A DNA stretch of 64,000 bases, from assembly GCA_965368245.1 (NCBI GenBank), contig CBDUMD010000002.1, forward strand, positions 54,772 through 118,771. The letters are read 5' to 3'. This stretch comes from an uncultured Thermoproteales archaeon (GTDB lineage Archaea; Thermoproteota; Thermoprotei; Thermofilales; B20-G17). Made by a program: the position numbers and the translations under genes. Shown piece after piece: positions 2,262-48,976 of the stretch (within the stretch, counting starts at the first letter, position 1; every line of letters starts with the position of its first letter). The notes beneath the pieces were generated by a model that was not told the DNA's origin, made no database searches, and saw nothing but the letters and a program-made list of their open reading frames with translations.

Positions 2262-5200
2262 ATGAGTAAAAAGATAGTAGGTATATTATCTATACTGCTG
2301 GTAGCGACATTAATAGTAGCTGTAGTACCTTCTTATGCAACCCCTGATGTAGAAGCCTTCGAGGTAACTTTAAAGGACCAGCTTGGGGCTGCCGTATATA
2401 AGGGTATCACCGAAGTACGCTTAATAGTATGGAATGCCGACACACTGATAGTTGACGCTGTGGGCGGAACCCCAGACACCAGCGGCAAAGTATTGTTAAC
2501 ACCCACTGTGGCCAAAGAGTTTTCCGGCGACGTAAATGTAACAATACTTGTAAAGACTGAGGATACAGGCGATCAATACCTATTATTCTACTATGAATAC
2601 CCTGTAAGCATTAGCGGGCTAAGTTACTTTAACACAACCTTCACGGGCAACCGTTGGTGGAACTTCAAGTTTAAGGTCGTAACAGACCCCTCCTGGACCG
2701 ATAAACCAGACTGGGCTGGAACCATACCCTTATGGTTCCCCGATCCAGAGAGACCTGGAGTAGTAGACAAGCCTTACGTTAAATTATATCTCGGCAAAAA
2801 CGAAACATATCCGGTGATAACTGAACTCGAAACCACTACTGGAGGCGTAACCCCCTACTTCAACTTCACAGACTCCCTTGCCTCCGTGGATAGCGAGGGC
2901 CACGTCACCTTCAGCGACGTGGTTATATACAAGGAGGTATGGTGGAACTATAAGAGAGTTATAGTAGGCAAGGAGCTTGTCAAGATATTCCACAACGCCT
3001 CCGGCTCCTTCATCAACGTTACAGACAAAATTGCCGGAGAAACTTACATTTCAGTTGAATTAAGCGCCACCACCAACGAGATAGAGGACAGAGCCTACAC
3101 AGTTCTTGTAGGAGTTAACTTAACAGACTGGGACGGAAACGACTTTGAGCCAGGTGTAAGCGAAGCCAAGGTGTTCTGGGAGTTTGAAGGCTTTGTACTT
3201 AGATCCGGAAAAGTTGAACCAGGAACCAACTATGCTCCAGCCGAGGGCAAAGAATACGCTGGAACAACATACTTCTGGCTTCCAGACGTATGGACAGTCT
3301 ATGGAAAGAATGCAACACTGGAGGTAACCTACCTGAGGGTACTTGTATTCCAGCAAGAATTTAACATTACAAGCTCCCCCGTTACCGAAACCGCGAAACT
3401 ACAGGTAGTTAAACTGGCCCTGCAGGTTAAGGACAAGGAGCCTATAGCTCAGCCCGTGGCAGGCGCCAGAATAGAGATATACTATAAGGGTCAGAAAGTA
3501 GAGTTTGCCCCTGGAATGACGTTCACCGTTACAGGACACTATTGGGGAGACGGCTGGGCTTACCTGCCGCCTCTCGCAGACTACTACGTAACCACTGGCG
3601 GAGATCTCGTAGTTGATACTGTATATTCTGGATACGGTTACCTGCCAGTGCCCCTCGGGAGCACCGAGGACACCTACACAGTGAAGGTATACTTTAAGTT
3701 CGGAGACGAGTGGATCGACGTAACAGACACTACAAACAACACCATAACAGTTAAACTTAGTGAACAAGGTAAGACCTTTATGGTTCAGGCCAAGCTCTAC
3801 GAAGCCTCCTTCATATTCAAGTCATATGCTAAGGAAGTATTATCGATAAACGACTTCGAAGACGCTAGAGTATACGTATACTATGGCGGTAAATTAGTCT
3901 TAGTTACTGTGCCTGGAACTGGAGGCGAAGTGATACTCTCCCAGATACCTGCGGGAGAATACTCCTTCAAACTCTACTGGAAGTGGGTCACAATAGACCC
4001 CTATCCAGGTAATGCGACCGTAACAGTCACAGACAACATAATAACCAAGCCAGTAATTTACTTCCCAATAGTCAACCTCAAGGTAAACACCTTCACCTGG
4101 GACAAGCAACCCGTAGCAGGACTGAAGGCCGCAGTCTTCTACAACGTTAGCGGCACATGGAAGTTAGATCCACAAGGCTGGGTTAAAGCCGCTGCAGACA
4201 AAACATATATTGAACTCAAGAAGATACCTGCAAACATACCCTTAAGGTTCCGGGTGAACACATCTGACGTTACACCTGGAATCAGAAGCGGAGAAGACAA
4301 CATCCTCGTATATGAGAGCGATGAATTCGTAGTAATAGCACCGACCTTAGAAGACTACCTCGTCGTGAAAGACGTATATACCTGGATATTCAGCTTCAAG
4401 CTTGTAGCAGCTGACTGTGAAGGAACACCACTGAAAGGAGTAAGCGTATACGACCCCAACTTAGATGAAACAGTATACTATAACGTTACAATACTCCTCG
4501 TAGATACAGACGACAACTTCAAGCTAATTAATATAACAGATCCATATGATGCTGTAGCCCAGTTCGACTACCTGGCTAGACAAGACGGAATCTCAAGCGA
4601 AGGCGTCACACACCTCTTCATCGCAGGCCAGAGCTACACGTTCAGAGTATTCTACCTCGGTACATTGGTCTTCGACTACACGATCAAGTTACCTAAACCA
4701 TATGAAACCAAGTTCTACTATGTCAATGAGACATCCAAGGAGATATTAACCGAGGTTCCAGAGGTAAACGCCACCTATCACCCACTCTACGAGTTTACCG
4801 GCGTACCTGAACCAAGCGACACCGTGATACCTGAAGTAAAGATCTACACATGGGTAGTACCCTTAAAGATCTACACCACCACAATTAGCGGAGCTTCAAA
4901 GCTTGCTAGCGCCTACCTGTTACCTAACGTGAAGCTCGTAATTACACTCAAGGACATACTTGAAGTAAGGGCTGTAAACGGTACCCCCGGATACACTGGT
5001 TATTCTTCACTCGCAGACACTGCCGAAACAAAGTGGGCTAACAACGAAACATATGTAACCATAACAACTAAGACTGACGAGAAGGGCGAGACAGAAATAC
5101 TTGTCCCAGTCTGGGTACCAAAGACAACCGGACACTTCAACGACATAAAGTTCGGCGCCAACATCACAAGGATAGAGGCCTACGGCAGCCAGGACGATAA

Positions 5201-7034
5201 TACCCCTGGCTTCGTATTAGATGTAGAGAAGCTCATAAACTATGGTACACCTGAAGACTACGCACGTAACGTAACAACATGGTGTGGAGACTGGACATGG
5301 ATACCCACAGAAGCGCTCGAACACATACTGGTTAGAGTACTCGCCCCAAGCAGGGTCGGATCACTCAAGGGAGTTGCCGGAGCCAAAGTAACCTTCACGC
5401 TCGACAGCGCCACAGTAGCAGAAGTTTCAACCGACGCTAACGGAGAAGCCCACTTCTGGGTACCGAAAGACGGAACATACACGCTCCCCAACGGCACCAC
5501 ATTACCAGTGGTAGCCGTTGACCCAGAACTCAAAGGAGTATTCTACACCAAGAACGTATTCACAGACTACACGTATGAAACAGACTTAGAGGCTATGGTA
5601 ACCTCAGTACTAGAGAACTACGGCACGGTCAAGAGGGACGGTGACATAATATACTTAAACGGACAGGCTGTAATGAGGCTCGAGAAGCTTACTGGAACAG
5701 TTGACTTCACAGAGGATTACAACTGTGGAAGCACACCCATAACCCTCGAATGGGGCGCATTAATGGTGAGAGTGCTCGACTGGGCTGGCCAGCCACTCAG
5801 AAACATGACTGTATTCGCAACCTCAACCAACGTAACCGAAGGAACCCTGCCGTTCATATACGGTATAACCGACGGCGAGGGCATAGCATTACTCTACGTG
5901 TCTGGATCAAGAAAGTATTACGTGGACGTATACTGGCGTGACACCTACTTCCTCTTCTACGCAGGCAAGATACCCAAGTACATAAACATCTACGCAAGCG
6001 CACACGACGAAGAGGCTCCATCAAACAGAATATGGAGTAAAGGCGAATACAGAGAAATCAAAGTATACGTATACAAGGTTGCTATAAAGCTCCTCAAAGC
6101 CGACGGCACAAGCCTGAGCAACGAGACACTCACAAAGATTAAAGCCAAGATAACGTGGCCCGACAATGTTGTAACAGAGGTCGCTCCGACAACAGACGGT
6201 AGCGTAAACATAATACTTAACGCAGAGACCGTGAAAGACTGGACCAAGCCGACGGAATATAGTATAAAGAACTTTAACCCGCTTTCACCCAGCAACCAGC
6301 CACAGACACCGCCAGGAGGATATAAAGTAGAGATATTCTGGGAGGGCATTGAAAAGCCGATTTACACCACAACTATAACAGTGGAGAGAGGTAAATACGA
6401 GACACCAAAGATAACAGTAGGAGTCAAACTACCAATATTCGACCTGGAGTTCAAGGTAGTATCGCCATTCGGCACACCTCTCGCCAATGCTGAAGTAAGC
6501 GCTGTAGTAGAGGGTGTTGGAACAGTAAGCTTCACGCTTGATGCAGAAGGCAAGGGAGTGATCAAAGAAGTACCCTTAGGAAAAGCTGTCATAAAGTCTG
6601 TTACTTGGAAAGGCGTAAATGTACTTGCAGCAGATAAGGAGGTAACACCAACGGTCACCACAGTACAGGCCGCAAACATAGGTAAATTGACCATAAAGGT
6701 TACCGGAGCCATGGGTCAGCCCGACACCGAGACAGTAAGCATAGAAGGACCGGTGTCAAAGACCATAAAGGTTGAAGGCAGCTACACTGAAGAGGTTCCA
6801 GCGGGAGACTATACTGTAAACGGAAAGAAAGTGACTGTGAACGCTGAAAGCGAAGCCACAGTAGAGATATCGACTGGCAGGCTCTTCGGCGTACCTTACT
6901 CGACATTTATAACCTATATTGTAGGAATAATAATAGCGATACTCATCATAGCAATAATACTCTACGAGTACACCAGCTACAGGACCTCAAGAAGACTAGC
7001 CAAAGCCATAGCACCAGCCAAACCAGAAAAGTAA
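2262..7034 (+). CDS. large cell-surface (S-layer-like) glycoprotein with C-terminal membrane anchor
   Basis: 1590-aa ORF with a signal peptide (MSKKIVGILSILLVATLIVAVVPSYATP). I count about 25 N-x-S/T sequons. It has repeated beta-rich carboxypeptidase-regulatory-like modules (e.g. GAKVTFTLDSATVAEVSTDANGEAHFWVPKDGTYTL), a C-terminal TM helix (FITYIVGIIIAILIIAIILYEY) and a basic tail. Codon usage is distinct, with C-ending two-fold codons. Confidence 0.7.
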   Translation: MSKKIVGILSILLVATLIVAVVPSYATPDVEAFEVTLKDQLGAAVYKGITEVRLIVWNADTLIVDAVGGTPDTSGKVLLTPTVAKEFSGDVNVTILVKTEDTGDQYLLFYYEYPVSISGLSYFNTTFTGNRWWNFKFKVVTDPSWTDKPDWAGTIPLWFPDPERPGVVDKPYVKLYLGKNETYPVITELETTTGGVTPYFNFTDSLASVDSEGHVTFSDVVIYKEVWWNYKRVIVGKELVKIFHNASGSFINVTDKIAGETYISVELSATTNEIEDRAYTVLVGVNLTDWDGNDFEPGVSEAKVFWEFEGFVLRSGKVEPGTNYAPAEGKEYAGTTYFWLPDVWTVYGKNATLEVTYLRVLVFQQEFNITSSPVTETAKLQVVKLALQVKDKEPIAQPVAGARIEIYYKGQKVEFAPGMTFTVTGHYWGDGWAYLPPLADYYVTTGGDLVVDTVYSGYGYLPVPLGSTEDTYTVKVYFKFGDEWIDVTDTTNNTITVKLSEQGKTFMVQAKLYEASFIFKSYAKEVLSINDFEDARVYVYYGGKLVLVTVPGTGGEVILSQIPAGEYSFKLYWKWVTIDPYPGNATVTVTDNIITKPVIYFPIVNLKVNTFTWDKQPVAGLKAAVFYNVSGTWKLDPQGWVKAAADKTYIELKKIPANIPLRFRVNTSDVTPGIRSGEDNILVYESDEFVVIAPTLEDYLVVKDVYTWIFSFKLVAADCEGTPLKGVSVYDPNLDETVYYNVTILLVDTDDNFKLINITDPYDAVAQFDYLARQDGISSEGVTHLFIAGQSYTFRVFYLGTLVFDYTIKLPKPYETKFYYVNETSKEILTEVPEVNATYHPLYEFTGVPEPSDTVIPEVKIYTWVVPLKIYTTTISGASKLASAYLLPNVKLVITLKDILEVRAVNGTPGYTGYSSLADTAETKWANNETYVTITTKTDEKGETEILVPVWVPKTTGHFNDIKFGANITRIEAYGSQDDNTPGFVLDVEKLINYGTPEDYARNVTTWCGDWTWIPTEALEHILVRVLAPSRVGSLKGVAGAKVTFTLDSATVAEVSTDANGEAHFWVPKDGTYTLPNGTTLPVVAVDPELKGVFYTKNVFTDYTYETDLEAMVTSVLENYGTVKRDGDIIYLNGQAVMRLEKLTGTVDFTEDYNCGSTPITLEWGALMVRVLDWAGQPLRNMTVFATSTNVTEGTLPFIYGITDGEGIALLYVSGSRKYYVDVYWRDTYFLFYAGKIPKYINIYASAHDEEAPSNRIWSKGEYREIKVYVYKVAIKLLKADGTSLSNETLTKIKAKITWPDNVVTEVAPTTDGSVNIILNAETVKDWTKPTEYSIKNFNPLSPSNQPQTPPGGYKVEIFWEGIEKPIYTTTITVERGKYETPKITVGVKLPIFDLEFKVVSPFGTPLANAEVSAVVEGVGTVSFTLDAEGKGVIKEVPLGKAVIKSVTWKGVNVLAADKEVTPTVTTVQAANIGKLTIKVTGAMGQPDTETVSIEGPVSKTIKVEGSYTEEVPAGDYTVNGKKVTVNAESEATVEISTGRLFGVPYSTFITYIVGIIIAILIIAIILYEYTSYRTSRRLAKAIAPAKPEK

Positions 7035-7176: not shown

Positions 7177-8121
7177 ATGGTCGTGCCCACACTAGCCGAC
7201 ATTAAAGGTATATCTTCCTTAGCGGCGGAAAAGCTTAAGGAAGCTGGCATTGATACAGTTGAGGCTGTAGCTGTTACGCCTGCAAGGGTGTTAGCTGAGA
7301 TTCTAGGTGTAAGCGAGGAAAAAGCTTTGAAGATATCTCAAAACGCTAGAAACCTACTCGGTGTACACTTTATAACAGCTGAGGAATACTTTGAGAAGCG
7401 TAGGGGCGTAGCCTATATCAGTACTGGTTGTAGGAGTTTGGATGATATTTTGGGTGGTGGTGTTGAGACTCAGTCTGTCACCGAGTTTGTGGGTGAGTTT
7501 GGTGCTGGGAAGACTCAGCTTTGCCACCAGCTTTGTGTTATGGTTCAACTGCCTGTAGGGGAGGGTGGTTTAGAAGGTAAGGCTGTCTATATTGATACTG
7601 AGGGAACCTTTAGGCCTGAAAGAATAGTACAGATGGCGGAGTATAGGGGTATTGAACCTAGAACAGCACTCCGAAACATAATATACGCACGTGCTTACAC
7701 GACGGACCATCAGATGCTGCTCGTAGAGGAGATAACTAAGAGGATCTCCCGGGAGAATATAAGACTTCTCGTAGTCGACAGCCTTGTAGGCCTCTTCAGG
7801 ACGGAGTACCCTGGAAGAGAAAACCTGGCGTCACGACAACAAAAGCTGAATCGCCATGTCCACCAGCTTCTCAAGATAGCGGACGTGTATAACCTTGCTG
7901 TGGTGGTTACTAACCAGGTTGTAGCTGACCCGGATTCCTTAATAGAAAACCCGTTACGCCCAGCCGGAGGAAACATTGTTGCACATGGATGCACCTATCG
8001 TATATGGCTTCGCAAGGGTAGAGGCAACCGTAGAATAGCTATAATATTTGATTCACCTAAACACCCTGAATCAGAAGCCGTATTCATGATAACCACGGAA
8101 GGTGTCCTAGACGTCTTCTAG
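7177..8121 (+). CDS. radA: DNA repair and recombination protein RadA
   Basis: 314 aa with an N-terminal HhH domain (GISSLAAEKLKEAGIDTVEAVA), the polymerisation Phe (HFITA), Walker A GEFGAGKT, Walker B LLVVDSL, and NLAVVVTNQV. Confidence 0.95.
   Translation: MVVPTLADIKGISSLAAEKLKEAGIDTVEAVAVTPARVLAEILGVSEEKALKISQNARNLLGVHFITAEEYFEKRRGVAYISTGCRSLDDILGGGVETQSVTEFVGEFGAGKTQLCHQLCVMVQLPVGEGGLEGKAVYIDTEGTFRPERIVQMAEYRGIEPRTALRNIIYARAYTTDHQMLLVEEITKRISRENIRLLVVDSLVGLFRTEYPGRENLASRQQKLNRHVHQLLKIADVYNLAVVVTNQVVADPDSLIENPLRPAGGNIVAHGCTYRIWLRKGRGNRRIAIIFDSPKHPESEAVFMITTEGVLDVF
7420..7693. repeat. 274-bp direct repeat, copy 1 (inside radA)
   Basis: Base-by-base comparison with 8186-8459 at offset 766 shows no mismatch. 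Identity ends at 7419/8185 and at 7694/8460. Confidence 0.97.
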
Positions 8122-8155
8122 CAGAGGATACTTCACACTAAGCCTTGGAGAAGTC

Positions 8156-8884
8156 TTGAAACGGCTAGGGGAAAAAAGGAGAATTAGTACTGGTTGTAGG
8201 AGTTTGGATGATATTTTGGGTGGTGGTGTTGAGACTCAGTCTGTCACCGAGTTTGTGGGTGAGTTTGGTGCTGGGAAGACTCAGCTTTGCCACCAGCTTT
8301 GTGTTATGGTTCAACTGCCTGTAGGGGAGGGTGGTTTAGAAGGTAAGGCTGTCTATATTGATACTGAGGGAACCTTTAGGCCTGAAAGAATAGTACAGAT
8401 GGCGGAGTATAGGGGTATTGAACCTAGAACAGCACTCCGAAACATAATATACGCACGTGTATACGATGTGAGCGAGCAGCTGGCTATTCTACCTCTCCTA
8501 GAAAAACTGGCTCAAAGCGACGAATATAAGTTGATAATAGTGGATAATGTTTCAACAACTTTTAGACTTGAGGCGGCAAAAACCATTCGCGAGAAAGGAA
8601 AAATATTTCGTGAACTGGCCTTCTTTGCTTTCACGATGGCTGAACTGGCTTTAAAGTACAATTTAGCGGTTGTGGTCACTAACCAGCTTATTTCGAGGCC
8701 AGGTCGGGGAGAAAGTCCAGTGGGGGGAATATTTTTAGAAAGTTTTGTAACAACTTGTCTTAAATTCAGTAGAGCTGGTGGCGATTACAGGAGAATTGAA
8801 GTAATGTTCAGTAGAAATCCTGAAATAAAAGCCGGGTTCTGTAGGGTGCATTTATCTGAAATAGGTTTAATCTCCTCGCCCTAA
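8156..8884 (+). CDS. RadA paralog (core ATPase only, aRadC/Ral-like), mosaic with radA
   Basis: 242 aa from a TTG start, with no HhH domain. Residues ISTGCRSLDD...NIIYAR, including Walker A, are nucleotide-identical to radA. The C-terminal half is divergent (VYDVSEQLAILPLLEKLA..., Walker B LIIVDNV, NLAVVVTNQL). Confidence 0.8.
   Translation: MKRLGEKRRISTGCRSLDDILGGGVETQSVTEFVGEFGAGKTQLCHQLCVMVQLPVGEGGLEGKAVYIDTEGTFRPERIVQMAEYRGIEPRTALRNIIYARVYDVSEQLAILPLLEKLAQSDEYKLIIVDNVSTTFRLEAAKTIREKGKIFRELAFFAFTMAELALKYNLAVVVTNQLISRPGRGESPVGGIFLESFVTTCLKFSRAGGDYRRIEVMFSRNPEIKAGFCRVHLSEIGLISSP
8186..8459. repeat. 274-bp direct repeat, copy 2 (inside RadA paralog)
   Basis: Identical to 7420-7693. Confidence 0.97.
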
Positions 8885-8910: not shown

Positions 8911-9162
8911 TTAGAGTATACTGTATAGGAGGCTCCATAGAGTAGCCCATGCTCCAACATACTCCATAACCCCCTCAAAAAGTTTTCTACTTTCAACACC
9001 CATCTTCTTTAAATACAGGATCAGGATCGCTAAGGTTCCTACGCCCAAAAGTATCCCTACTAGACCCTTCAACTTGAGGATTCCACACACAGCACCTATA
9101 ATAAAACCTAAAAGGACTTTAACGTAGTAGTATTCGAGCCTAAGATTCGATCTCCATGCCAT
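8911..9162 (-). CDS. small membrane protein
   Basis: 83-aa ORF with two or three hydrophobic, glycine-rich helices (VLLGFIIGAVCGIL, LVGILLGVGTLAILILY). No motif recognised. Confidence 0.4.
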   Translation of the reverse strand: MAWRSNLRLEYYYVKVLLGFIIGAVCGILKLKGLVGILLGVGTLAILILYLKKMGVESRKLFEGVMEYVGAWATLWSLLYSIL

Positions 9163-11183
9163 GTGGGGTCAGCACCTTGAATAGTGTAAAAACAGGTACT
9201 AAAAAAGCTTTAACATCCCTTGATGTACGAGCCATTGTAAAGGAGCTTTCTCAAGCTATTACAGGTCTCTATATATCTAATATTTACCAGGTAAATGAAG
9301 TAGTGTTATTTAAGCTTCATAGTTCCTTGAAGGGAACTCTCAGATTGTTGATCATACCGGGTGTAACCCTCCACCTGACAAAATTTGATTTCACTAAACC
9401 ATCCATGCCTCCCCCTTTCTCTAAGACTTTGCGAAGATTGCTTAAACGTGCTATCATAGAAGAGGTTTCACAACTCGATTTCGATAGAATAGTGTTCATC
9501 AAGATTAAAGACGGCGAAAACAAGTCCTACACTGTTGTAGTAGAGCTCATTAGAGAAGGAAATATAATACTTTTAGATGAGGCTGGAAAGATCATCACAG
9601 CCTTATATATGCGGGAGTTCCGCGACCGGGTCGTAAAAAAGGGATTAAAATATATTCCTCCTCCGAGAAGAGGTGAAGACCCCTTTGAGGTATCCTTTCC
9701 GGACGAATTGGACACCGTGGAAAAGCTACGGGACTTTCTGACTTCAGGATGCAGTATCTCACGGGAAACCGTGGAGGAGATCTGCTTTAGGGTTAAAAAA
9801 CTTGTCGAACAGCATGGTCTTTCTGTTAAAAATGCCGTTTTAAAAGTGGTGGATGAATTAAAGAGTATTTTAATGGATGGAAGGTTAAAACCCAATGTAA
9901 TTTATTCTTCAGGCCTTAAAGTAAACGTCCATCCCCTGATCTTCGGTGTCGAAGAGGGTTTGGAAAGAAAATTCTATGCCACTTTCAGCGAGGCTCTTGA
10001 CGAGTATTTCGGTGACGTTCTTAAGGAAAAAATAGAAAGAGACTTTCATGAGGAGGTGAGGTTCACTTCTAGACTGAAGGCTTCCCTAAAAGAGGCTGAA
10101 AAACGGAAGGAGGAGTTTGAGGAAAGGGCTAGGATACTTCGGCAAGTTGCATTCCTCTTATCCTCTAGAATACATGAGGTCGACGAAGTTTTTTCGAAAA
10201 TATATGGAATGATCGAGGAAAAATCCTTTAAAACAGCATGTAGTATGGCAAAGAACTTTTTATCTAGTGTCGGAATAAAGGTCGATAAAATAGAATTTGA
10301 TCCAGCGTTAAAATCGATGAAAATACGGGTTGAGGGAGCCGAAATTGAAGTGGAAAAGGGGGATAGTGGGGGTAAAATAGTTTCAAAAATATTTTCTGAA
10401 GCTAAGAAATACGAGCGTAAAGCTGAGAAGGCCGAGGAAATAATCACGAAAAAACTTTCTAAAACTCATTTAAAGCAACCCGAGCTGTTGAAGAGAAGGA
10501 TGATTGTCAAGGCTGTGAAAAGCCGGAGATGGTACGAGAAGTTCCATTGGTTTTTCTCGAGCGAGGGGATTCTAGTTCTGGGGGGAAGAGACGCTACACA
10601 GAACGAGGTTTTAGTGAAAAGGTATTTGGGAGAGGGGGATATTTTCGTTCATGCGGATATTCATGGGGCCCCGGTGGTGGTTGTAAGGGGTGAATGTAGC
10701 GGAGAAACCCTCTTTGAAGCAGCGGTTTTAACTGCAGTGTACTCTAATGCATGGAAGGCGGGTTTCACGGTAGTGGATGTGTTTTGGGTGTATGGTAGAC
10801 AGGTATCCAAAAGCCCACCGAGTGGACAATACCTTAAAAAGGGGTCTTTCATGATTTATGGTAAAAGAAACTACATTAGACATGTACCATTAAAGTTAGC
10901 CCTAGGGATAATTTTTGAGGAAGAATCCTTTAGGTTGATAGCTGGACCCGTCTCGGCCATTAGTAAAGCTACAGATAATTACATTGTAATCGTACCAGGG
11001 CGAATTGACCGAAGAGTTTTCGCCAGGAAAGTTAAAACTTTCCTTGAAAAGCTTTCACGAGAGAAGGGATACATCCTCGACATTGAACTTCAAGAAATAA
11101 TGGAAAAGCTACCCCCCGGAGACTTAGAGGTTAGAGAGGTTAAAGGTTTATTCGAAGGATTCAGGGTGGGAGATAATGCATAA
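9156..11183 (+). CDS. NFACT-family protein (FbpA/Rqc2/RqcH-like, ribosome quality control)
   Basis: 675 aa with an N-terminal NFACT-N-like region, a central coiled coil, and an NFACT-R/DUF814-like block (WYEKFHWFFSSEGILVLGGRDATQNEVLVKRY...GDIFVHADIHGAPVVVV). The true start may be the in-frame TTG at 9177. Confidence 0.8.
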   Translation: MPCGVSTLNSVKTGTKKALTSLDVRAIVKELSQAITGLYISNIYQVNEVVLFKLHSSLKGTLRLLIIPGVTLHLTKFDFTKPSMPPPFSKTLRRLLKRAIIEEVSQLDFDRIVFIKIKDGENKSYTVVVELIREGNIILLDEAGKIITALYMREFRDRVVKKGLKYIPPPRRGEDPFEVSFPDELDTVEKLRDFLTSGCSISRETVEEICFRVKKLVEQHGLSVKNAVLKVVDELKSILMDGRLKPNVIYSSGLKVNVHPLIFGVEEGLERKFYATFSEALDEYFGDVLKEKIERDFHEEVRFTSRLKASLKEAEKRKEEFEERARILRQVAFLLSSRIHEVDEVFSKIYGMIEEKSFKTACSMAKNFLSSVGIKVDKIEFDPALKSMKIRVEGAEIEVEKGDSGGKIVSKIFSEAKKYERKAEKAEEIITKKLSKTHLKQPELLKRRMIVKAVKSRRWYEKFHWFFSSEGILVLGGRDATQNEVLVKRYLGEGDIFVHADIHGAPVVVVRGECSGETLFEAAVLTAVYSNAWKAGFTVVDVFWVYGRQVSKSPPSGQYLKKGSFMIYGKRNYIRHVPLKLALGIIFEEESFRLIAGPVSAISKATDNYIVIVPGRIDRRVFARKVKTFLEKLSREKGYILDIELQEIMEKLPPGDLEVREVKGLFEGFRVGDNA

Positions 11184-47782: not shown

Positions 47783-47856
47783 TAGCGGGGGGTGGATTTG
47801 AACCACCGACCTCCGGGTTATGAGCCCGGCGGGATACCTGGCTTCCCCACCCCGCT
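47783..47856 (-). tRNA. initiator tRNA-Met (CAU)
   Basis: The reverse complement folds as AGCGGGG-UG-GGGA-AGCCAGGUA-UCCC-G-CCGGG-CUCAUAA-CCCGG-AGGUC-GGUGG-UUCAAAU-CCACC-CCCCGCU-A. It has an A1:U72 pair and three G:C pairs closing the anticodon stem, which are initiator hallmarks. CCA is not encoded. A TATA-like atatttatag lies about 10-19 nt upstream (complement of 47866-47875). Confidence 0.85.
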
Positions 47857-48900: not shown

Positions 48901-48976
48901 GGCCCCGGGCGGGACTTGAACCCGCGACCTCCGGCTCCACAGGCCGGCGCGCTAACCAGCCTACGCTACCGGGGCC
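48901..48976 (-). tRNA. tRNA-His (GUG) with genome-encoded G-1
   Basis: The reverse complement is G-GCCCCGG-UA-GCGU-AGGCUGGUUA-GCGC-G-CCGGC-CUGUGGA-GCCGG-AGGUC-GCGGG-UUCAAGU-CCCGC-CCGGGGC-C. The extra 5' G pairs with C73, which is the His identity element. Confidence 0.85.

Follow-up and report, generated by a model that had tools for sequence, protein, structure and literature searches.

Probable long-lasting, domain-restricted gene conversion between radA and its tandem paralog in uncultured Thermoproteota

We describe here a pair of adjacent recombinase genes, radA and a RadA paralog lying directly downstream, in a 64-kb stretch (hereafter the window) of contig CBDUMD010000002.1 from an uncultured Thermoproteales archaeon (assembly GCA_965368245.1). 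The two genes have 274 identical bases in common, and every one of five related lineages carries the same tandem. Judging from their comparison, we believe that the first half of the two ATPase cores has undergone long-lasting, domain-restricted concerted evolution by recurrent gene conversion between radA and the paralog, a reading to which we assign a probability of roughly 0.85. A sequence-only reading of the window had taken the tract for the trace of a recent conversion event. Conversion is indeed supported, while the idea of a single recent event has to give way to recurrence across species.

The two genes and the shared tract

The main features of the locus are as follows.

7177..8121, plus strand: radA, 314 amino acids; HhH N-domain, FxxA polymerisation motif F65-A68, Walker A 106-113, Walker B LLVVD at about 201
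8122..8155, plus strand: radA-paralog spacer, 34 nucleotides, without a T-run terminator; GGAG 5 nucleotides upstream of TTG (sequence read directly)
8156..8884, plus strand: tandem RadA paralog, 242 amino acids, TTG start, without the HhH domain and without the FxxA motif
7420..7693, plus strand: tract copy 1, presumed net donor; radA codons 82-172 plus one base, identical to 8186-8459
8186..8459, plus strand: tract copy 2, presumed net acceptor; paralog codons 11-101, identical to 7420-7693
8460..8884, plus strand: paralog-specific, fast-evolving C-half, outside the proposed conversion domain

The open reading frame (ORF) at 7177-8121 is a bona fide canonical archaeal RadA recombinase. It scores far above the cut-offs of both NCBIfam RadA equivalogs (NF003301, 451.6 bits, cut-off 259; TIGR02236, 429 bits, cut-off 361) and contains the Pfam domains Rad51 and HHH_5; an identical RadA protein is encoded on an independent ENA contig, L002. 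The downstream gene matches Pfam Rad51 (PF08423, 188 bits) and stays below the cut-offs of the RadA equivalogs (NF003301, 209.8 < 259; TIGR02236, 198.8 < 361, the match beginning at profile position 80) as well as those of the RadB equivalogs (TIGR02237 and NF006861, 124.8 < 172.4 and 101.5 < 278). Its 26.0 bits against the KaiC/ATPase family PF06745 are under the cut-off of 26.6, which leaves it outside a KaiC-like aRadC assignment. In BLASTP the paralog is 57% identical to RadA overall, for the sole reason that its residues 11-101 are identical to RadA 82-172; residues 102-242, which we call the C-half, are only about 24-28% identical to RadA. The C-half retains Walker B (IIVD) and the TNQ motif, its L1 and L2 loops are altered, and the 'AH' histidine of RadA is replaced (LES). 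According to PMC2919713, this histidine corresponds to the filament-interface residue His352 of yeast Rad51.

When the window is compared with itself at an offset of 766, no exact run is longer than the 274 bases of 7420-7693 and 8186-8459, which match throughout, as the sequence-only reading had reported; its codon range and its assignment of the two genes were borne out by the offset comparison and the profile scores. A repeat search extends the pair to 7417-7698 and 8183-8464 at 99%, and no other direct or inverted repeat of at least 40 nucleotides was found within the 64-kb window. In translation, the tract begins with STGCR, ends with NIIYAR and contains the Walker A motif GEFGAGKT (residues 106-113). 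In copy 1 it corresponds to the beginning of the ATPase core, with the P-loop of Walker A, the next helix, the YIDTEG strand and the segment TFRPERI...NIIYAR, and the sequence of this copy is that of a canonical RadA, judged against orthologues. Outside the tract, the codon-aligned DNA identity of the two genes is about 40%, and because of this low background a run of 274 bases cannot have arisen by chance (roughly 0.4^274).

The edges of the tract had been described as abrupt, and sharp they are: identity falls to the background level immediately past 7693, and ahead of 7420 it is patchy. The upstream local alignment (AGCTGAGGAATACTT / AGCAGAGG-ATACTT) is marginal (P ~0.05 against shuffles), and the same holds for the weak remnant of the radA linker, GAGGATACTT, within the spacer (P ~0.05). 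We considered this patchy similarity as the remainder of an older, longer tract and, given its marginal significance (P ~0.05), did not rely on it.

Species-specific tracts in related lineages

A metagenome protein search with RadA showed that another five lineages of uncultured Thermoproteota, distinct at the species level, have the radA-paralog tandem (L020-L023, L024, L025, L026/L027 and L028). Their RadA proteins are 72-83% identical to that of the window. On every contig from these lineages, a Rad51-family gene lies directly downstream of radA, and the conserved order is large surface protein, radA, paralog, EMC6-like gene, NFACT, Mut7-C and AMMECR1. Since the start of the paralog overlaps the radA stop in several relatives, the arrangement indicates an operon, with co-transcription of the two genes predicted.

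The tracts found between radA and the paralog within each genome are these.

Window: 274 bp, 100% (radA nucleotides 244-517)
L024: 276 bp, 100% (radA nucleotides 241-516)
L025: 352 bp, 0 mismatches and 1 gap (radA nucleotides 174-524)
L026/L027: 225 bp, 100% (radA nucleotides 302-526)
L028: 286 bp, 100% (radA nucleotides 241-526)
L020-L023: 276 bp, 81%

Between species, the DNA of the same tract codons is only 67.8-79.1% identical. Synonymous sites have thus been homogenised within genomes and not between them, and across this segment the paralogs of one genome are more alike than the orthologues of different species, which is the mark of concerted evolution. The runs exceed what divergence would lead one to expect, end abruptly and include synonymous sites, both in the 274-bp tract and in the nested tract of L020 described below, and in no species does either ORF lose its frame across the tract. 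In the codon alignment, the 3' edge lies at RadA codon 172 in the window and L024 and at codon 175 in L025, L026 and L028, while the 5' edge varies from RadA codon 59 to codon 101.

The conversion reading would have failed if the gene pairs of relatives had been conserved at the protein level only. Four other species turned out to have perfect tracts, each with a sequence of its own. The lineage L020-L023 shows the protein-level pattern: third codon positions account for 40 of the 52 mismatches, and the tract protein is about 89% identical despite 19% DNA divergence; yet L020 also carries a nested tract of 97 nucleotides (a 68+28 nucleotide run with one mismatch, permutation P ~1e-5). We take this for an older tract on its way to escape, within which a younger and shorter conversion has occurred.

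These data also bear on the idea that extreme purifying selection on protein and codons keeps the two segments identical without any exchange of DNA. The tract is the most conserved part of RadA, and the protein conservation just mentioned for L020-L023 points the same way. However, RadA orthologues differ from species to species at 21-32% of the nucleotides in the tract, so that synonymous sites are evidently free to change, and selection on the protein cannot yield identity that is confined to within genomes. We regard this explanation as refuted and see practically no chance for it.

The paralog of L025 deserves a separate remark. Its tract (paralog at L025:4963-5685) extends 5' into the RadA linker and the FxxA motif (LLGIRFITAEEY), and no other C-half is as degenerate: the Walker B aspartate is replaced (LILVPSL), the TNQ motif is absent, and the identity to any other sequence is about 16%. 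This paralog may be decaying, or may have been strongly re-purposed, while conversion still acts on it.

Age of the duplication and selection on the paralog

Between species, the C-halves of RadA are 70-83% identical at the amino acid level; the values for the paralogs are 11-49% among themselves and 15-33% against RadA. In a leave-one-out profile comparison, the C-half of the window paralog scored 129.5 bits against the other paralog C-halves and 35.4 bits against the RadA C-halves, and the corresponding paralog/RadA values for other paralogs were 148.2/48.6, 95.8/55.8, 117.5/52.5 and 66.1/38.5. By these profile scores the paralogs are orthologous outside the shared segment in all ingroup species, weakly so for L025. 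The duplication predates the species, because the paralog C-halves score higher against each other's profile than against RadA's. The paralogs descend from one old duplication, and the identity of their N-halves with RadA is not the leftover of a recent one. The window paralog had been said to carry a C-terminal half 'of its own'. Divergent it certainly is, but it belongs to an old, fast-evolving, clade-wide paralog family.

Had each lineage recently and separately duplicated part of radA in tandem, with the copy joined to unrelated sequence downstream and no conversion involved, such an origin would account for the tandem arrangement and for the observation that some paralog C-halves (L024, L028, L025) are no closer to each other than to RadA. 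Synteny and the 3' boundary are nevertheless shared by all six species, the C-halves are RecA-fold homologues with the better mutual profile scores given above, and the old, synonymously diverged tract of L020-L023 with a younger one nested in it needs repeated exchange. We therefore hold this origin to be highly improbable.

A more distant Thermoprotei metagenome-assembled genome (MAG), L029 (GCA_021162845.1), whose RadA is 69% identical to that of the window, carries a full-length RadA paralog of 313 amino acids with an HhH-like N-domain (L029:5310-6251) in the corresponding syntenic position. This paralog is 37% identical to the RadA of L029, with no DNA tract common to both, and a small antisense DUF131 ORF lies between the two genes. 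The L029 pair is plausibly a candidate for the unconverted, ancestral state, its orthology being ambiguous by the profile test. Among the GTDB species representatives searched with RadA (at most 67% identity; Thermofilaceae and other Thermoproteota MAGs), no tandem paralog was found within 6 kb; in one of them, L014, a second RadA-like gene lies about 2 kb from RadA on the opposite strand.

The C-half of the window paralog is almost an orphan, having a single near-identical match, the 99% strain variant P0001, in a set of 5.8 billion proteins and 23 matches at E<1e-3 among 1.84 billion representatives. An exact look-up of the 242-amino-acid paralog in a contig index returned no record, and a scan of JGI metagenome_contigs with the C-half returned no relative, this collection evidently being without relevant samples.

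The paralog is a working gene. Its reading frame is intact in every species, and in two pairs of close strains (window against L001, L026 against L030) the C-half differs by 6 synonymous changes and 2 conservative replacements; the window and L001 account for 2 of the former and 1 of the latter. A binomial estimate gives P ~0.004 for 6 against 2 under neutrality. This pattern shows purifying selection on the C-half.

Assemblies, deletions and points against the conversion reading

The direct repeats had been predicted to be a substrate for a 766-bp deletion that would join the RadA N-terminus to the paralog C-terminus. Exactly this structure is found in a public contig, L030 (Logan SRR7517634_8124), which is 98.4% identical to L026 (L030:1-1693 compared with L026:3446-5902). 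It lacks one repeat plus the spacer (764 bp) and encodes a protein of 307 amino acids, P0125, that consists exactly of the RadA N-half, the tract and the paralog C-half. A k-mer assembly cannot separate deletion from collapse, and the L030 fusion is either a real deletion allele or a collapsed assembly path.

The fusion is also what would be expected if the two copies were homogenised by cycles of unequal crossing-over, that is, by deletion and fusion followed by re-duplication, instead of by non-crossover conversion. But duplicating a fusion anew would bring back neither the distinct C-half of RadA nor the spacer nor the old C-half of the paralog, and variable 5' edges with intact flanks better fit patchy conversion. 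We consider such cycles very unlikely.

Assembly trouble has to be considered as well; all of our sources are metagenome assemblies. In the extreme case, the true N-half of the paralog would differ from RadA, and a collapsed or mis-threaded repeat would have led to one consensus being written twice. The collapsed path that L030 may represent and the odd deletions in both copies of L001 (see below) would be in keeping with this, as would two short, independent, radA-bearing ENA contigs, L002 and L031, which end at window positions 8176 and 8139, just ahead of copy 2 (8186). These ends may represent assembly breakage at the repeat; they do not enter the repeat, unlike a normal break in a k-mer graph. 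Independent assembly support thus comes from L002 and L031 for copy 1 and from L001, with its deletions, for both copies. Against an artefact stand the five species with perfect tract sequences of their own, on contigs from different samples and in SPAdes, JGI and other naming styles, and the agreement of two independent assemblies, L026 (ENA, 83x coverage) and L027 (JGI). The copies of L020-L023, at 81%, were kept apart in four assemblies, which demonstrates that assemblers separate diverged copies. A collapse could hide a few single-nucleotide differences at most, and recent conversion would still be required. Overall, the sequence-only reading had left assembly collapse as the alternative to conversion, and we find it very improbable as the cause of a pattern that recurs in independent assemblies, each with its own tract sequence.

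Several observations weigh against our interpretation and have to be kept in mind. The shared ancestry of the C-half is weak for L025 (14.5 versus 5.4 bits), and the C-half profile is ambiguous for the outgroup L029 (52.2 versus 48.9 bits). The direction of conversion is read solely from its outcome. From assemblies alone, a tract identity of 100% cannot be told from one of about 99%, as de Bruijn assemblers may pop small bubbles and so make near-identical copies appear identical. Finally, L001 (JGI 3300033145), a 97-99% identical strain assembly, has in-frame deletions of 60 bp and 102 bp inside the two tract copies.

L001:6112-6328 and L001:6818-6992: sites of the L001 deletions, equivalent to window 7520-7579 and 8244-8345

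These deletions are clean, have a common 3' breakpoint and show no microhomology. Their products, a RadA of 292 amino acids without the helix that follows Walker A and a paralog of 208 amino acids without Walker A, suggest that both proteins would be wrecked. Neither the window nor L002 has the deletions, and L031, which has the S-to-A allele of L001, lacks them too. They are either an artefact or a real variant, and the locus either troubles assemblers or is unstable. An origin from microhomology or an internal repeat was rejected, as the 8-mer AGACTCAG occurs twice in the tract with the breakpoints out of register; a resemblance to sequencing adapters was considered and dismissed as well.

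A scenario for the conversion

We propose the following scenario. In an old tandem pair, the first half of the two ATPase cores would be kept identical by repeated, non-reciprocal, intrachromosomal gene conversion, with a net flow of information from radA to the paralog. That radA is the net donor is suggested by the tract, which is always canonical RadA. Heteroduplex formation or its resolution would be unable to run further 3' past codons 172-175, because DNA homology ends there, the paralog C-half having diverged beyond recognition. Tracts that start further 5' might vary and decay, giving the variable 5' edge, since the upstream linker region should be dispensable in a paralog without the N-domain. 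The molecular route is presumably a non-crossover repair of the synthesis-dependent strand annealing type between direct repeats 766 bp apart, and the same repeats could serve as a substrate for the deletion that joins RadA to the paralog. Selfish elements, inteins and RNA-level explanations were also considered and set aside for want of any supporting feature, both ORFs being in frame through the tract in all species.

The paralog protein and its possible role

An AlphaFold model of the paralog, built from a RadA-rich alignment, has a predicted template modelling score (pTM) of 0.81 and a RecA-fold core; the predicted local distance difference test score (pLDDT) is 86-98 in the tract half and lower in the C-half. 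Its top PDB fold matches in Foldseek are protomers of Rad51, Dmc1 and RadA (TM-score 0.81-0.84), its best PDB sequence match is the RadA of S. solfataricus (2BKE), and RadB (2cvf) is matched at E 4e-22.

It had been claimed that the paralog carries the exact Walker A half of RadA and lacks the HhH domain. This holds, and the FxxA motif is absent as well. The tract also encodes what we take, from Rad51-BRC and FxxA structures, to be the pocket that receives the FxxA motif of the neighbouring protomer. We infer that the paralog is an accessory protein of RadA. It would present an exact copy of the ATP-binding and FxxA-acceptor half of RadA and would be devoid of the FxxA donor motif, the HhH domain, the RadA-type L1 and L2 DNA loops and the interface histidine. 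Because the acceptor half is an exact copy while the donor motif, the HhH domain, the loops and the histidine are missing, the protein might dock on a RadA protomer or at the end of a filament and serve there as a cap or mediator that does not propagate the filament. Two considerations weaken this functional part of our scenario: the model of the paralog has a pLDDT below 50 in its last 50 residues, notably at residues 190-227, and the cap or mediator model is a hypothesis built on sequence features and on general knowledge of Rad51-family interfaces.

It is tempting to suppose that conversion, instead of being a mere passive by-product, keeps the docking face of the accessory protein matched to RadA, a copy-paste from radA taking the place of compensatory mutation. 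We put this forward as a tentative idea, more doubtful than probable. If so, the DNA-loop and C-terminal half of the paralog could evolve quickly, perhaps under diversifying pressure. Two observations fit the docking-face idea. In L020-L023, where conversion has lapsed, selection still keeps the tract protein at about 89% identity against about 30% in the C-half, and the 3' boundary stays at codons 172-175 while RadA itself differs by up to 28%.

Genomic neighbourhood

Other features of the window are listed below.

8911-9162, minus strand: EMC6-family membrane protein, 83 amino acids, divergent to the NFACT gene
9156-11183, plus strand: NFACT (Rqc2/Tae2-like) gene, 675 amino acids
18154-18954, plus strand: KaiC-type RecA-superfamily ATPase of the aRadC-like kind, 266 amino acids (PF06745, 186.9 bits)
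47783-47856 and 48901-48975, minus strand: two tRNA genes, the only Rfam matches in the window

Upstream of radA, a protein of 1590 amino acids (2262-7034, plus strand) has an N-terminal signal-like segment and a C-terminal hydrophobic anchor. Its only Pfam match is a sub-threshold one to CarboxypepD_reg (27.4 bits, cut-off 32.3), and we regard it as a probable S-layer or surface protein. The stretch containing its gene is less conserved between strains than the downstream region (96.7% versus about 99%), and the length of the protein in relatives ranges from 1224 to 1866 amino acids. The EMC6-family and NFACT pair is syntenic with the radA-paralog tandem in most relatives examined. With the KaiC-type gene added to radA and the paralog, at least three RecA-superfamily genes lie within 12 kb. 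The Rfam scan of the window found nothing at the radA-paralog locus, and a scan for sigma-70 promoters and intrinsic terminators, which is not meaningful for an archaeon, gave no terminator-like site.

Significance

If our interpretation is true, the locus provides a natural example of domain-restricted concerted evolution across species, with perfect tracts, a fixed 3' edge and an escaping lineage (L020-L023), and it could help to estimate how long conversion tracts are, and how much homology they require, in hyperthermophilic archaea not yet cultivable. It would also define a RadA paralog family, tandem to radA, predicted to be co-transcribed with it, lacking the HhH domain and having RadA itself as its Walker A half; no such family was found in the literature that we searched. 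A testable hypothesis on the capping or mediation of RadA filaments in Thermoproteota would follow. On the practical side, the mosaic nature of the paralog would mislead phylogenies or annotations based on the whole protein, and direct repeats of 225-352 bp would trap metagenome assemblers (as in L001 and L030) and be a possible source of radA-destroying deletions. That a recombinase gene is itself the substrate of conversion is a detail worth attention.

Comparison with known systems

Archaeal RadA paralogs without an N-terminal domain include RadB of Euryarchaeota and SsoRal/aRadC of Sulfolobales, to which a mediator or accessory role is ascribed. Like these proteins, the window paralog is a RecA-fold core without the HhH domain. 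Unlike RadB and aRadC, it lies directly downstream of radA, and half of it is identical to RadA at the nucleotide level; to our knowledge, no such RadA-identical half has been reported for RadB or RadC. In eukaryotes, complexes of RAD51 paralogs (BCDX2 and CX3; Rad55-Rad57) cap the ends of RAD51 filaments. They have the Rad51 fold in common with the archaeal protein and offer a precedent for the engagement of filament ends that we propose, and PDB entries titled 'capping RAD51 filament' were among the top fold matches, where the matched chains were mostly RAD51 protomers. The likeness to the eukaryotic RAD51 paralogs is an analogy of mechanism and not a sign of common descent.

As to the process, a survey of rare long-lasting concerted evolution in prokaryotes counted 26 genes (Wang & Chen 2018, Commun Biol, PMC6053082), and both the phenomenon and the logic of its detection are the same as here. 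The main text of that survey contains no radA, recA, Rad51 or 'recombinase', so the radA pair is apparently not among its cases. In the literature on RadA paralogs and gene conversion, we found only work on the equalisation of genome copies in haloarchaea and general reviews. Overall, the process is known, while the radA-paralog gene pair and the paralog family appear to be undescribed.

A close parallel is provided by the tandem paralogs mtrA-1 and mtrA-2 of methanogens, in which gene conversion is long-lasting and restricted to one domain (Wang et al. 2015, G3, PMC4632066). In both systems an old tandem duplication lies in an archaeal operon, one domain has been recurrently converted in many lineages while the C-terminal part of the second copy diverged, and the paralogs cluster by species in the converted domain. 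The radA pair differs in belonging to another gene family and another phylum, and its tracts are perfect and short (225-352 bp), with a boundary that falls within a single fold, in the middle of the RecA core, and not between domains. Unlike in mtrA-1/mtrA-2, moreover, the gene subject to conversion is that of the recombinase itself.

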